Below are positions 1-56,323 of a stretch of 64,000 nucleotides of DNA, one piece after another (the first letter of the stretch is position 1; each line of letters begins with the position of its first letter). The position numbers and the translations under genes were made by a program. The notes under the pieces were generated by a model. The model saw only the letters and a list, made by a program, of their open reading frames with translations, did not search any database and had not been told where the DNA came from. The stretch is from Harriotta raleighana (taxonomy: Eukaryota): NCBI GenBank assembly GCA_050575255.1, contig JBNZDD010013602.1, positions 96,333 through 160,332 of the forward strand, read 5' to 3'.

Positions 1-760
1 CAGTGGCTGCCCTGTGGTACCCATGTTATCAGTGGAACCCACGCTTGCCCCACGGTTGGCTCGTGGCAGGTGGACGGTTGGAGCACGTGGTGCGCGCGAG
101 CCCAGGTGCTTTGGACCGTTAAAGCCACGTGACCGATTTGAATCTGGTTCCCCTCCCCCCGCCCCCCCCCCCACCCCTCCCCACTCCGCTCCTTCCCAAG
201 CGCGCGCTCTCGGCTCGGGGTCCGGGGAGAGACACATCCCAAGAGAGTGAACAAAACAGGGGCGGCGGCGGCGGCGGGGGGGTGTGTGTGTGTGTGTGGG
301 GGGGGGGGATGTTCGTTGGTGGGTGGGGAGAGAAGTAAAATAGCTCGTTTAGACTCGCAGAAATGGCCGAGGAAGAGACCTTCGACTTAAATGTGCTGCG
401 CGTCGACGGGAGGCAATTCCGTGTGGGGGTGAAGCCGGGGGACACCATGGAGGACGTGAAAATAAAACTTTCGACGTTGCTCGGCGAGGAGGACTCGGGT
501 GACCCCGAGCCCGTCAGGCCCGAGAGGCTCAGGCTCCTGTCAGCCCAGCAACCGCTGGAGGATGACCTGACAGTCGCCGAATGTGGTCTTGCGTCGGAAT
601 CCATCGTGACCTACCAAGAGAGGAGTATGTGGCAGGGTCGTTTGATCCTTTTCATCCCCTCCATCATCCCCATCCCTTTCCTCCCCTCCTCTCTCTCTCT
701 CCCCTCCCCACCCCCCCTCCCCCCCCCACACACACACACACACACACCTACCTATCATTA
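1..760. promoter_or_regulatory. GC/CpG-rich promoter and first-exon region of gene A
   Basis: High GC and many CpGs compared with the AT-rich downstream DNA; contains the ATG at 363 and a gtatgt donor at 625. Confidence 0.6.
363..624 (+). other. Ubiquitin-like (beta-grasp) domain exon of gene A
   Basis: Ubiquitin-type pattern (VxPxDTxxDVKxKL; RLRLL; LEDDLTVAECGL, cf. LEDGRTLSDYNI); no C-terminal GG; phase-1 donor. Confidence 0.75.
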
Positions 761-3700
761 ATACTAATTACTAATACTACCTAATACCATTCACATTCAT
801 CTATTATTCACACCCATTCACTATCCCTGTATCGATTCATTCTCCGGCCCACGACTGTACGTACGGTCACTTCGCTTCACGGTTCCGTTCACTGGCCGAA
901 GCGTTTTGAGGCGTCTGGAAGACGAAGTGAAAGGCGCCATATCAAATAGTAATTAGGAATGATTGGAACGCTAATCCTTGCGTTTGACATAAAGCGCTCT
1001 ACACGTCAATCCGGACGCCTCGTAAAGCGCCTCGTGGAATATGCCGGAAGGTGAATTGGCTGCGTATCGGCGGGGCGAAACGCGGCAGCCATTCGCATAC
1101 AAACACCGAACAAAAAAAGCGAGGATGATTATTATTATTATTAGACTATTACCGATCAAAATGTTGTTTAAGAAAAACATTCTGTTTTTTTGGCAGGTGC
1201 AGATGGATCTGGAGTCATTGACTACACCAGTAATTTGCCTTTAATGTTTTACTTTAACAATTAGTTAGACATTACAATCGCATGAAGTAACATTAGATAC
1301 TCGGGTAAATTTTAAAATAATACAGATTCAGTGTTTATTAGATGTATCTACATCAGCCTTTTTATTCTGAGGTCGTGATATGGTTGTGTGGGAAAGTGAA
1401 TCACCTCAATCATTTGATTTTCCAAGTGTGAGGTTTACAGTTTACAAACAATTTTGTGTTTCTTCATTAATATAAATAGAACTGGTGTAAGTTAGCAAAC
1501 AGCTACAATTGCCATAGTTGAGAAGCAATTGAAGATGTTGAGTGGACTCAATGGTCTTAAGCTAAAATCACAGGTGTTTTTATTACGTCAAAATTTCAAA
1601 TATTTGTGTATGTTAGTACAGTGCTAGTTAATGGTGAACAGATTTTCACGATTTTTTTTGTTTCAGTTTCGGGTGAATTCCCCAAAGGTACATCAGCAGG
1701 TAACATTATATTTGTAGTATGTGAAACATTATAGTTTCATGGTAGAACTTGTGGGCACAATTGAGATAAATTTCCCACAGTTAAATTTCTTGGATGACAC
1801 TCACAATTATAGATAGTATTTTTATATATATTGTAGACAGATACACTGAGCATAACATTTATTGCAGTCAACACTGTATCTGACTGCAGTAAATGGTGGG
1901 TATTGTATTTTTATTATGCAATTACAGTACTTGAATTTAGATAGAGTAAGCACATTTAGGAGTAAATTTGTGTATTACATTTAACCTAAAAGGAAAGATG
2001 ATACTTTTTTATTGCTGTTTTCTGATATTTAACGAATAATATTAAAATATATCTTTTCCAATATATTTTAGATTGGAAGCCGCTTGCTAAATTTCAACAT
2101 GTAACTCCAGATACAACCAAGAGGCAAAGAAGTATGTTGCTTCCATTCAGTGTATTAAATAGCTAATGGCACTTTTAAAAATATATATTATAAATTAGAA
2201 ATAACTAATTTTCTCAAGTTTATGTGTTTTTAAAAAAAAAATCTGTTTCTTTAAACAATTACTATTGATAATTTATCTAGGAAACTGCTTCAGAAGGAGT
2301 TTTCCCATGTAAGGTAATTAGAAAAACACAGTCAATTCAATTTACAGTATGAAGCACTTTGTGACGTCTTGAAGACATGAGAAAGCACTTTGTAAATACG
2401 AGGGTTATTATAGTTGAAAGTAAAGTAAAGTGCAGAAAGAAGAACCTTATATAATTTCACTCAAAGTTTCTCAAAGCAACTACATCTTTTCCTTTGTAGC
2501 CAGATCAGCTATTTCTAAATGTCTACACATTTTGTAAATACACAATGAATGAATTATAGGATTTTGAATAGATATTCTGAAATTACAGCACGCGTGACTT
2601 CATCTGGTTTACGTGGACAAATGGATGTATGTCATCATGTTTCTAAACAAACTTACATCTTTGTTAATTACCCCACTTGGATTACTAAATCTGTCATTCT
2701 AATATTTAGTAGGAATACCCTTGTAGCATTACACTACTTGGAGTATATTAGATTGTGTATTGTGTCATTTAATCCAATTTACGCTGTTAATGTAACAATA
2801 GTGCACCTACTGAAGTACTTACCGTTGTATTCTATTCTAATGAGTCTTGGTGAATCCAAATACGCTAGCTGCAACATTCTATAAAATGTAATTAATAATT
2901 CTTGTGAGAAAGTAGAGAGAAAAAATAAACTGTTCCTATTTAACTTTTCACACAGGAATGATGAGGATACTTTGTGAGTTTAGTCACCAAAAGATGACTA
3001 GTTCTAACATGTGTGAGATTGAAGAGGTAACAGTTTTGATTTAAATATAATTGGCTAGACATTAATTTCATGTAGGAAAAATAGGATAATAAGGAACAAC
3101 CTGATTTACTCCAAAATCTGATTTATTCCCTTTCTTTGATTCTCTGAAGGAAAAAACAAACTGGAAAGTGATAGAGCCTGATGTCTCTGATCAGGAGTTA
3201 TTTTTTAGGTAAGGTCTGATAGAAACCCAATGTTTTTAATGACTTTTAATTCTATATTACATTCTCATACTCACATTTCTGTGCAGGATTTCTCTCCCAG
3301 ATGAAGGCAATTATGAATGTGCTGTAACTGGACTAAGATGGGAAATCACAAAATCAACAACCATTGATTACAGATATTGCTCGTGGCATGAATATGCTCC
3401 TATTATTGTGATAAAGAAAGCAGAATTTTCAGGTCCTTTGTTTAATATTGTGGCAGAAGACAGTGTTATTACAGCTATTCATCTTCCTCATTTTATTTGC
3501 TTAAAAGGTATCTTCCAATATTTTCTTTATTTTAGAAATTTTCAAGGTTCTCTACTATGCCGTGCTTTTTTCATAGAAAACTATAATTATGCATAAACAT
3601 GTTTTTTCTTTCCTACTGCAGGCAAAGATAGAATAATAGATTATACCTTTGCAATTTTCCATGTTAAAGAAAGCTCCTATAGCGTACGGAAGCCATCAGA

Positions 3701-54800: not shown

Positions 54801-56323
54801 CACTGTCATTGCTCAATTCAAATGGCCTTCCCTCAGAGATCAGAGAACTTTTAAGAAGTCACGAATAAAAGCCACACCTTTCAATTTTCAAACTGCTGCA
54901 CAATACCCTGCTAGACATTTATTACTATGCCTTAACTACTGTGCCTTTTGATTCCACTTAGATGATCTTCGCAAGCAAGCTATAATAAGAGGTAGATATT
55001 TTTCACAACATACTTCAAATTAATTGTTGTTACAAGTTAGTAAATAATTATTCCGACTAGTGCAAAGATAAAGACCAGACGCAATAAATAGTCAAAGAGA
55101 AAGTGAGAAATTGCCTGTGAGAAGGAGTCAAAAGATTGAATTGGATGAAGAAGCCACTTCAGTTGATCTGATCTCTACCTTCCAGAACACTCCTACTATT
55201 CCCTATTGCAGCATTAAGCAGATTTTTAAATCAGTTCAGCATCTACCCTCTACCATCCGGAGAACTTTTCCAGTTATTCATAGTCTCTGATCAATAAAAA
55301 ACTTCTGTGGCAATGGTCGTGAAATTACTCTTTAGATCTAGACCCACCAACCACTAATTGGCTTTATAAATAAAGTAACTGTTTATTAGTATCAATATTC
55401 AACAATAAATCTAATTTTAATCAAATTTATTGTTTTTATGGATAAAATCCCCAAACTAAATTTTTTTGTGGATCAGAAACTATCTTTATTGGTTCTTAAA
55501 TATATTTGCATCTTCAGTAAAAGCCAAACCAAATTTATTTATCTTGTGCAATATTTTAGCTACATCACTCATGTGTAAAGTAGGCAACATATTTGTAGTC
55601 ATGATGAATGAATAGCCTTTTACTTAAATTCTGTAAATTTTCCCTTTTCTTCAGGTGTGCCTGAAGAAAGCATAGAGGGTAAGTCCAAATATATCACCAA
55701 ATAATCTTTTGAAGAATCTGTACATCAAACCATCTATCTCTCCACCTATCTAATATTTTACCACGTATGCATTCTAGCAGAGGTAACTTGATGGAGATGA
55801 GTGTCTCCACTTCCCCCAACACTCTTCCCCCTCCCCCCCTTAAACCGAGAGCAATTCGAATACCCCAGAAATTAGCTATTTTGAATCATCCAATTGTGAC
55901 AAAGATTCAGAAAGGTTATGACACCAAACAAATAAAATCAAATACAAATGAAGAATAAAACTAATATGATAGAAATGCTTTATTTTGACTGCATATGGCT
56001 AGTTCAGGATGTTCTGAGTTACATGCAGAAACTATCTCTAATACAAAACTATTTCTACAGCTGTGGAGTTTGTGAAGCGGCATAGGAGAAACATCATTGA
56101 GAGACTTGGAGTAATTGACCCTATCCTTAGACATTTGTTCCAAGTAAATGTGATCAACGAGGATGAACAGGAGAAAATTATTTCCACAACAACAAGATCA
56201 GAAAGGAATCAAGCACTGATGCAAATAGTAATGAGCAAAGGAACATGTGCCCAAAAGGAGCTTTACAGAGCAATGGAGAAAAATGATCCCTACTTTGTAC
56301 AGGATCTTAAAGAAAATCAGTAA
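45822..56323 (+). CDS. Gene D: di-UBL-FIIND-CARD protein (~576 aa)
   Basis: Exons 45822-46308 (two tandem UBLs, donor t|gtaagt), 49787-49810, 50593-50634, 51531-51604, 51695-51756, 51832-52043, 53739-53989 ([14 protein letters not shown]), 54178-54297, 54389-54530, 54962-54991, 55655-55678 and 56061-56323 (CARD). Total 1731 nt, in frame. Confidence 0.82.
48290..49672 (+). mobile_element. L2-clade LINE 3' fragment in intron 1 of gene D
   Basis: (M)[22 protein letters not shown]...[13 protein letters not shown]...LHWLP; ends in a (ttg)n tail; internal n-gap duplications. Confidence 0.8.
52478..52566 (+). mobile_element. Short CR1 RT fragment
   Basis: tccaagtttgcagatgacactaagttaggg = [10 protein letters not shown]. 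Confidence 0.6.
52718..53117. mobile_element. Tc1/mariner (Tigger-like) MITE
   Basis: Imperfect TIRs cagtaaaacctcgataatccgac / gccagattattgaaattttactg, flanked by TA; absent from the paralogous gene C intron (~38757). Confidence 0.7.

Follow-up and report, generated by a model that had tools for sequence, protein, structure and literature searches.

The window analyzed here, 64,000 nt of Harriotta raleighana DNA, contains four FIIND-CARD genes (A to D), three of which (A, C, and D) open with exons encoding ubiquitin-like domains (UBLs). On balance, we consider it probable that CARD8-type functional-degradation sensors equipped with an exchangeable ubiquitin-mimic bait are encoded by genes C and D and, in its front half, by gene A. 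Microbial proteases and E3 ligases are known to be detected by NLRP1 and CARD8. For enzymes that strip or attack ubiquitin-like modifiers, the literature searched yielded no sensor, and UBL-FIIND-CARD proteins would be a concrete candidate for one. Neither the architecture nor the locus was found described in the literature covered, to which subscription journals and bioRxiv supplements did not belong, and the design is apparently undescribed so far.

Organization of the gene cluster

Pfam ubiquitin matches above cut-off were obtained at 363-623, 33366-33647, and 45822-46307, the last as two stretches, in agreement with the one, one, and two UBLs that a preliminary description of this DNA had counted in genes A, C, and D. 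PF13553, PF23679, and PF00619 were matched on exons of genes B, C, and D, and UPA matches on single exons were mostly below the Pfam curated cut-off. As also described, NACHT, LRR, and PYD gave no Pfam match in the gene models or among 23 ORFs scanned; the single PYRIN match in the genome lies on a contig other than that of the window. The proposed in-frame splicing of UBL to FIIND at 624>1197, 33648>36475, and 46308>49787 was borne out by prediction, the junctions all being GT-AG and phase 1-1 and the resulting models free of internal stops (gene A, 1322 aa and 36 exons; gene C, 513 aa and 12 exons; gene D, 576 aa and 12 exons). The UBL-FIIND-CARD layout ascribed to all three genes held for C and D but not for A, in which the sole CARD lies 17 kb past the first FIIND, with 19 linker exons and a second FIIND in between. 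Missing from the earlier inventory were gene B, a UBL-less first exon of gene C, a decayed UBL exon, and a duplicate of the 3' part of gene D (Table 1). An upstream exon was identified by eye as PXMP2 and gave no Pfam match.

Table 1. Features of the FIIND-CARD gene cluster, with positions in the window.
Feature	Position	Strand	Remarks
Gene A exon 1	363..624	+	single UBL, PF00240 E 4.8e-9; phase-1 donor; no GG
Gene A micro-exons 2-6	1197..3208	+	74-aa UBL-ZU5 spacer; AG/GT, in frame
Gene A FIIND1 (ZU5+UPA)	3287..4710	+	His...TF/S; Ser codon 3741; Glu279-equivalent is Arg
Gene A linker	4975..17284	+	19 phase-1/phase-1 exons, ~460 aa, acidic, TQT-type motifs
Gene A FIIND2 and two lead-in exons	17896..21076	+	His replaced by Cys; site PL/T
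Gene A last exon	21439..21884	+	CARD (Pfam E 8e-9) and C-terminal hydrophobic tail
Gene B	22996..29267	-	CARD8-like FIIND-CARD, no UBL; 448 aa, 11 exons; His...KF/S
Inverted copy of gene B 5' region (28439-29809)	31098..32171	+	blastn 72-76%
Gene C UBL-less alternative first exon	31492-31573	+	intact; in-frame splice giving 446 aa
ISRE-like motif	33147..33157	+	~210 bases upstream of gene C UBL ATG; weak
Gene C UBL exon	33323..33648	+	acceptor 33323, ATG 33366, phase-1 donor; Pfam E 9e-9; single UBL, no GG
Decayed D-type UBL cassette in gene C intron	34392..34740	+	79-83% DNA identity to 45506-46076
Gene C micro-exons, FIIND, and CARD	36475..42136	+	His...SF/S, Ser codon 39670
ISRE-like motif	45382..45392	-	~430 bases upstream of gene D ATG; weak
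Gene D tandem-UBL exon	45749..46308	+	acceptor 45749, ATG 45822, phase-1 donor; no GG
Gene D micro-exons, FIIND, and CARD	49787..56323	+	His...SF/S, Ser codon 53852
Gene D 3'-half copy	57115..61074	+	98.8% identity; after single N at 57111

For gene A, orthologous models lend the predicted fusion good support. A skate model, 53% identical over gene A 3-424, reproduces the UBL-FIIND fusion and the micro-exons (exons 2-3 are kept in skate model P0164), and a bamboo-shark model likewise reproduces the fusion including the micro-exons. The gene A UBL shares 42-47% identity with the UBLs of skate and shark, and the gene A ATG lies within a CpG island (CpG o/e 0.76). For genes C and D, the fusion is predicted from splice signals. 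Database searches returned no orthologue of either gene, and a weak search of the gene D UBL exon against longer proteins scored none of 178 candidates.

We regard it as highly improbable that the UBL exons form ubiquitin-like genes of their own, whether stand-alone or nested, or remain unspliced to the FIIND exons. The intact UBL-less first exon of gene C, unspliced read-through ORFs of 96, 164, and 132 aa, and an AATAAA/ATTAAA 230 bases downstream in gene C could be read in that way, but orthologous exons are fused in the skate and shark models, strong donors are placed exactly at the end of the fold, no other first exon was found for D or A, and the GG for conjugation is absent.

The inverted duplication accounts for the opposite orientations of genes B and C, which point away from each other, and the inverted copy also carries a frameshifted copy of gene B exon 3. 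Gene B is 70% identical across its length to C. milii P0003. The copied 3' half of gene D is likely a second haplotype or an assembly duplicate.

FIIND residues and the proposed mechanism

By analogy with CARD8 and NLRP1, the FIIND would cleave itself, the halves would remain associated, and UPA-CARD would be held back by DPP8/9 until destruction of the N-terminal half by the proteasome freed it for CARD-caspase recruitment. The genome has matches for DPP8/9, a CARD-adjacent caspase, and gasdermin. The UBL would serve as bait for microbial factors targeting ubiquitin or UBL proteins. The chimaera, shark, and lungfish forms have no GG, and there the trigger would be binding of the UBL together with ubiquitylation or forced degradation, with the 56-74-aa spacer as the entry point for the proteasome, while in the LRGG forms of turtles and birds a cut after GG would expose a new N-terminus. 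The mechanism is supported by the stop-free canonical models and by the orthologous fusion in skate and bamboo shark. A degradation tag at the CARD8 N-terminus suffices for firing (PMC9213247), and NLRP1 is triggered by viral E3 ligases (10.64898/2026.10.24.761588).

The equivalents of His252 and His270 and the F/S site are intact in gene A FIIND1 and in genes B, C, and D; the intact His and F/S residues described for A, C, and D thus stood except in gene A FIIND2. The Glu279-equivalent is replaced in all four of these cleavable-looking FIINDs (by Met in B, C, and D), and this counts against the mechanism because CARD8 cleavage drops on loss of Glu279, a residue that only modulates cleavage (PMC3210808). 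That position is Glu in 138 of 154 FIINDs of UBL-less proteins and in 45 of 65 FIINDs of UBL-bearing proteins, 61 of the latter 65 keeping His270. Other points against the mechanism are the Tyr at the His270 position in the skate orthologue of gene A, all three models of which stop before any CARD, one lungfish protein with Tyr at that position and an RW/S site, and, in the window, the GG-less UBLs with their partial Ile44 patch and the lack of a database orthologue of C or D. A CARD8-like functional-degradation mechanism fits genes C and D.

The Glu279 replacements, along with the missing His of FIIND2 and of the skate orthologue, would also suit a reading in which at least some of the chimaera proteins, and perhaps all, are non-cleaving inhibitors or scaffolds restraining UPA-CARD; uncleavable CARD8 pieces act as inhibitors (PMC9213247). 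Gene A may be two genes, one for UBL-FIIND1 without a CARD and one for FIIND2-CARD-TM. In skate, catshark, and C. milii, database models do break A up, and in the window a linker-like exon bearing an in-frame stop lies at 14686. We judge this reading decidedly unlikely: His252, His270, and F/S are intact in A FIIND1, B, C, and D while Glu279 merely modulates cleavage, and the phase-1 series of linker exons is unbroken, inspection by eye having revealed no first exon from which the 3' half could start on its own.

All 19 linker exons, picked by eye and to that extent biased, have lengths that are multiples of 3 and are open in the phase-1 frame; C. milii model P0159 has counterparts of the final four (87% over A 768-1127). 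The exon at 14686, which also has no donor, was dropped from the gene A model, as was a candidate at 2281-2313 having a stop in the required phase. FIIND2 is predicted to be non-cleaving, and catshark P0019/P0178 is in the same state (Cys; PL/S). The hydrophobic tail (Kyte-Doolittle 19-mer 2.4, 5 residues from the C-terminus; 1.55 for the catshark tail) is a predicted membrane anchor. As modeled, gene A does not give simple UPA-CARD release; with functional degradation, the piece released would be a membrane-anchored UPA-linker-FIIND2-CARD.

Divergence and exchange of the UBL caps

None of the four window UBLs finishes in diglycine, confirming the reported lack of an LRGG end, and the Ile44 patch is only partly retained. 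Of 71 turtle/bird-type UBL-bearing proteins (isoforms counted separately), 47 have [LIV]RGG, 14 another GG, and 10 none; Gly follows [LIV]RGG, as the new N-terminus upon a cut, in 39 of the 47. The earlier suggestion of a decoy for DUBs or deISGylases fits the chimaera UBLs poorly because they have no scissile GG, and fits the turtle/bird proteins much better.

Genes C and D are 88% identical in ZU5, 80% in UPA, and 79% in CARD at dS 0.11-0.17, and 82% in the spacer, whereas their UBLs are 30% identical at dS ~1.0. The dN/dS values of 1.08 (UPA) and 0.89 (CARD) come from few sites and so do not demonstrate purifying selection there. In the decayed cassette (dN/dS 0.98), the UBL exon (34576-34740) has lost the 5' part of the UBL, and its phase does not agree with that of the gene C exon. 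Differing first exons are joined to one downstream exon in skate isoform X3 and in turtle isoforms X2/X3. An exchangeable cap is supported by the C/D UBL divergence, the relic cassette in the C intron, and the alternative first exons. Rapid turnover of the cap fits a bait role, and rapid divergence is also compatible with relaxed constraint. Mean identity among 21 bird proteins was 0.48 for the UBL, 0.69-0.75 for ZU5, UPA, and CARD, and 0.25 for the spacer, making the spacer the least conserved region and the UBL the most divergent folded part; among 8 turtle proteins it was 0.68 for the UBL versus 0.79-0.91 for ZU5, UPA, and CARD.

The low conservation of the bird spacer would be in keeping with a UBL that is a folded protective cap, shielding the N-terminus or aiding folding, with sensing by a protease that cuts the spacer; mammalian CARD8 senses viral proteases through such cleavage (PMC10249858). 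Such a cap, which we think quite unlikely, leaves the retention of [LIV]RGG in 47 of the 71 turtle/bird-type proteins unexplained, and between C and D it is the spacer that is conserved while the UBL is swapped.

The UBL could also be a host degron within the protein itself, comparable to FAT10 or RAD23 and constantly feeding the N-terminal half to the proteasome, so that the protein reports proteostasis, translation shut-off, or DPP8/9 capacity and not a microbial enzyme touching the UBL. A UBL with an unstructured region is a proteasome signal, and here the UBL is followed by a 56-97-aa spacer that is predicted to be disordered in a turtle model; the tandem UBL of gene D is laid out like FAT10/ISG15, and weak ISRE-like motifs lie upstream of C and D. 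Yet the ligand of a host receptor should be conserved, and no other folded part diverges as much as the UBLs; in the window, moreover, little is left of the Ile44 patch, and constant firing would require tight restraint. We consider a degron unlikely, and a bait remains our preferred reading of the UBL.

The gene D UBL exon (Pfam E 1e-26, two stretches) was modeled by AlphaFold as two beta-grasp domains (pLDDT 84.7), with linear di-ubiquitin and ISG15 as nearest folds. Two such domains in one exon recall the tandem UBLs of ISG15, FAT10, and OASL, but gene D has no terminal GG and is fused to a FIIND. The contig also carries, ~80-95 kb upstream, a cluster of OASL genes whose tandem UBLs end in LRGG; its exons were rejected as a recent source of the window UBLs (23-25% identity, no DNA match). 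Two tandem-UBL ORFs were rejected as recent donors as well. The one at C13602:6179-6685 comes after OAS1_C exons, shares their strand, and is an OASL last exon, not a stand-alone ISG15-like gene; the one at C13546:4191-4703 sits in the same kind of OAS cluster.

UBL-bearing FIIND proteins in other vertebrates

The family described from this cluster is real but extends much more widely, the UBL-FIIND architecture occurring in lungfish, turtles, and birds (59 of 120 among the matches listed). In turtles and many birds, the gene that goes by the name CARD8 usually has the UBL cap. Chicken 'CARD8' (XP_415289.4) and Mauremys XP_044845428/9 share the UBL-spacer-FIIND-CARD layout; unlike in the window, the UBL usually ends in LRGG and keeps the Ile44 patch, and the turtle/bird FIINDs form a clade apart (quick tree of 55 rows thinned to <62% identity). 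Window FIINDs clustered with those of sharks and lungfish (support 82-92, unstarred) in trees that included no named human CARD8. A single FIIND clade for all UBL-bearing proteins was rejected (AU test p = 0.0001; 14 rows vs 14, LG+G4 quick tree), the group having been named after viewing an earlier tree and the 28 rows picked by hand. The UBL tree was largely unresolved, with 18 of 27 forks open. The ESM Atlas held FIIND/ZU5 clusters only, all <0.9 and none with a ubiquitin family, and nothing relevant was found in the literature on synteny of the bird and turtle UBL-CARD8 genes.

A broader and more tentative proposal is that ubiquitin mimics were joined to FIIND-CARD at least twice in jawed vertebrates, giving a decoy inflammasome family that guards the ubiquitin system. 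Turtle/bird CARD8 would possibly be a direct deubiquitinase sensor, a cut after LRGG leaving a Gly N-terminus that fires the inflammasome; the GG-less chimaera caps would be exchanged by way of alternative first exons, with gene A as a membrane-anchored version. To our knowledge, ISG15 is absent from birds. Turtle and bird UBL-CARD8 may be bait for microbial enzymes attacking ubiquitin, and the reading of bird 'CARD8' changes in that proteins such as those of chicken and eagle begin with a UBL.

Plant NLRs carry integrated decoy domains, and if the proposal is true, the genes would be a clear animal case of such decoys, with cassette swapping visible in a single locus. The likeness lies in a sensor that bears a swappable bait domain and in the head-to-head placement of bait-free B and bait-bearing C; the scaffold is unrelated, however, and no evidence was found for paired B/C action. 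Mammalian CARD8 resembles the window genes in ZU5-UPA-CARD, His252/His270, the F/S site, and the new N-terminus S-L-M/L, and the short N-terminus of gene B is laid out in the same way. It differs in Glu279, replaced in the window genes, and in a long disordered N-terminus where A, C, and D have folded UBLs and a short spacer; only gene B and the alternative exon of C give an N-terminus without a folded domain. NLRP1 (human, rat, and mouse NLRP1B) shares the FIIND-CARD C-terminus, gave the best PDB sequence and fold matches, and follows decoy and functional-degradation logic (10.1101/317834), but the window genes are without its NACHT, LRR, and PYD. Many UBL-FIIND-CARD-type proteins are named 'NLRP1-like' in databases.

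A survey counts CARD8 as part of the minimal avian inflammasome (PMC11258412). Read by eye, the chicken and eagle proteins it lists start with a UBL, on which the survey is silent, and its zebra finch protein is of a different type.

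Gene structure and the predicted joining of UBL to FIIND

A Pfam scan of 23 open reading frames located four ubiquitin domains (table below), together with FIIND (ZU5 plus UPA) and CARD exons across the cluster. Models built by hand gave proteins of 1322 (gene A), 448 (gene B, on the minus strand and without a ubiquitin-like domain, UBL), 513 (gene C) and 576 amino acids (gene D), with AG/GT at all internal junctions and 0 internal stops. The junctions named in the preliminary description, 624>1197 (A), 33648>36475 (C) and 46308>49787 (D), proved correct as splice predictions. 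Its order of UBL, FIIND and CARD for A, C and D stood as to the exons and their predicted in-frame splicing, but was too simple for gene A: there, 19 phase-1 exons also encode a linker of ~460 aa, and the protein carries another FIIND as well as a hydrophobic tail at its C-terminus. The two UBLs it had ascribed to gene D were borne out by AlphaFold, which folded the first exon as two beta-grasp domains (pLDDT 84.7) whose closest structures were linear di-ubiquitin and ISG15.

The RefSeq skate gene model XP_078277565, matching gene A residues 3-424 at 53%, extends from the UBL across micro-exons 2 and 3 into the first FIIND (FIIND1), and a bamboo-shark gene model likewise joins the orthologous UBL to a FIIND. 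Skate isoform X3, also a gene model, starts without the UBL on an identical second exon. Database searches returned no orthologues of genes C and D, so their predicted fusions draw on splice signals, good Kozak contexts and, for D, the absence of another first exon. That the UBL exons are unfused to FIIND is highly improbable.

In the second FIIND of gene A, Cys replaces His270 (human CARD8 numbering) and PL|T replaces SF|S; a dead second FIIND, a CARD and a weaker hydrophobic tail were found again in catsharks. The linker exons were picked by eye, and a Callorhinchus milii model matches the last four only. Database models divide gene A in two; we lean toward a single gene. The linker contains recurrent TQT/VQT/TET motifs (aa 701, 732, 813 and 841), with similar ones in the catshark linker. 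We take these to resemble dynein light chain LC8 sites, and they could dimerize the protein. The tail possibly makes this a tail-anchored CARD protein, a layout that presumably recalls MAVS.

The window genes are 70-87% identical to C. milii proteins, which suggests a related holocephalan. Across the 1.10-Gb assembly, FIIND matches numbered at least 12, and those found lay in the cluster or at one further locus, on contig C13729. By eye, that locus looks like what PMC11258412 lists as "CARD8" for opossum, zebra finch and alligator, so the label may span two unrelated lineages.

Features of the cluster and its surroundings (window positions unless a contig is named; the window is C13602:96333-160332)
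Feature	Position	Remark
Ubiquitin domains	363-623; 33366-33647; 34576-34848; 45822-46307	Pfam
TQT-type motifs in linker	13534-16801	gene A
Hydrophobic tail	21800-21884	gene A
CxxC immediately before ZU5	27597-27670 (B); 37700-37773 (C); 51531-51604 (D)	
Conserved 58-60-base element	33071-33130; 34431-34488; 45547-45604	splice-like ends; before each C/D-type UBL cassette
Upstream flank		P2X receptor; DNA polymerase epsilon (matches)
Downstream flank		acylphosphatase; TMEM17-family gene (matches)
Acylphosphatase ORF	62666-62974	no introns; inside CpG island
Copy of its upstream region	42954-43284	
Assembly artefacts	43640-45686; 47245-48960	878 identical bases flank N gap 44518-44808; short duplications at single Ns
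Further FIIND locus	C13729:12.208-12.215 Mb	death domain downstream
OAS/OASL cluster	C13602:1-18500 (~80-95 kb upstream of window); C13546:1-16200	its tandem-UBL exons, like avian OASL, close with LRGG or VRGG and a short extension

Distribution and origin of the architecture

With a profile made from the exon that holds the cleavage site in the window, 249 representatives were recovered. Among the 150 of these that were listed, a UBL profile flagged nine, including skate, tortoise, four bird and two lungfish proteins. A second profile, built from 13 full-length homologues of which 12 were UBL-bearing and thus enriched for such forms, matched 625 proteins; among the matches listed, 59 of 120 had a UBL, many UBL-less rows being labelled partial, and the named UBL-bearing proteins were exclusively from turtles and birds. 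The architecture extends beyond the chimaera, for example to turtles, birds and lungfish. Outside sharks and lungfish, 47 of 71 UBL-bearing proteins contained [LIV]RGG, followed by Gly in 39 of the 47 (isoforms counted separately).

The predicted fold of a turtle member comprised UBL, disordered spacer, ZU5, UPA and CARD (pLDDT 66.7). In a softshell turtle protein, the CARD is preceded by a UBL and two stretches of FIIND. Another protein has KRAB fused to FIIND-CARD, which may reflect a faulty gene model or a further integrated domain.

In the FIIND tree, chimaera, shark and lungfish proteins grouped together (support 82-92, unstarred), and turtle and bird proteins formed a starred clade within other tetrapod-type FIINDs. 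A single exclusive clade of UBL-bearing FIINDs was rejected (p-AU 0.0001), so the tree allows either two UBL captures or an ancestral UBL-FIIND-CARD whose N-terminus was later replaced. From their listed lengths, the bird and turtle chromosomes of these genes would presumably fit the chicken-15 homologue, which we take to carry POLE.

We found no description of the architecture in the literature within reach (subscription journals and bioRxiv supplements lay outside it), in keeping with the earlier view that it is not known as a characterized family, and the domain combination is already present in automatic annotations. The chicken and golden-eagle "CARD8" sequences supplementing PMC11258412 start, by eye, with a UBL, the chicken one ending with the ubiquitin hexapeptide; "ubiquitin" occurs 0 times in the paper's text and supplement. 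By word search, the CARD8 evolution paper PMC10249858 and the review PMC11202080 leave birds and chicken unmentioned. FIIND fusions to a different partner, TRADD-N, are described in PMC8195603. Judged from sequence, this variant of the CARD8/NLRP1 tripwire is real and widespread, has apparently gone unnoticed, and has a putative function.

Probable autocleavage and the possible role of the UBL

Comparison with human CARD8 and NLRP1, using mutagenesis from PMC3210808, confirmed that the FIIND His and F/S residues are intact in A, C and D as originally described: His252, His270 and F|S are retained in A-FIIND1, B, C and D. Glu279 is substituted in all four, and its loss lowers CARD8 cleavage (PMC3210808); the skate orthologue of gene A has Tyr at His270. 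Autocleavage is likely, not certain, and it is quite improbable that the proteins are non-cleaving inhibitors. The CxxC before ZU5 is common to B, C, D, skate, lungfish, turtle and most bird proteins, with one Cys retained in A-FIIND1, and is a possible metal or redox site.

CARD8 and NLRP1 fire upon destruction of the N-terminal half (10.1101/317834; PMC9213247; PMC11760013), and viral E3 ligases can fire this pathway (10.64898/2026.10.24.761588). Genome matches comprised DPP8/9, CARD-adjacent caspases, gasdermins and one PYRIN. We slightly favor the UBL as bait. Caps without GG would act through binding and ubiquitylation, GG cleavage being excluded; where the cap carries LRGG, cutting by a DUB would lay bare a Gly, and an N-terminal Gly is an N-degron. 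A UBL that is itself a host degron seems unlikely. Birds lack ISG15 and bird OASL terminates in LRLRGG (PMC8764230), which would give microbial enzymes reason to cut such ends. Among the folded domains, it is the UBL that diverges most in birds and in turtles alike. That the UBL is a passive cap we regard as doubtful.

Turnover of the UBL cap

The cap is modular. Genes C and D are 88% identical in ZU5, 80% in UPA and 79% in CARD (dS 0.11-0.17), versus 30% in the UBL (dS ~1.0). An intron of gene C holds a decayed D-type UBL cassette whose dS to D, 0.19, is in line with the gene body. In the simplest history, the C/D ancestor bore a D-type cap that was later replaced in C. Between C and D, dN/dS was 1.08 in UPA and 0.89 in CARD, from few sites, which speaks against strong constraint. 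Gene B itself is an ordinary CARD8-like gene; an inverted copy of its 5' region, including an intact first exon without a UBL, precedes C, which indicates that gene C originated next to B.

ISRE-like motifs lie upstream of C and D; the window holds 7 versus 1.9 expected, 2 of 100 shuffles attained 7, two of the seven are duplicated sequence, and we grade the signal weak. The 58-60-base element, open in C and broken in D, may be a micro-exon or a promoter piece.
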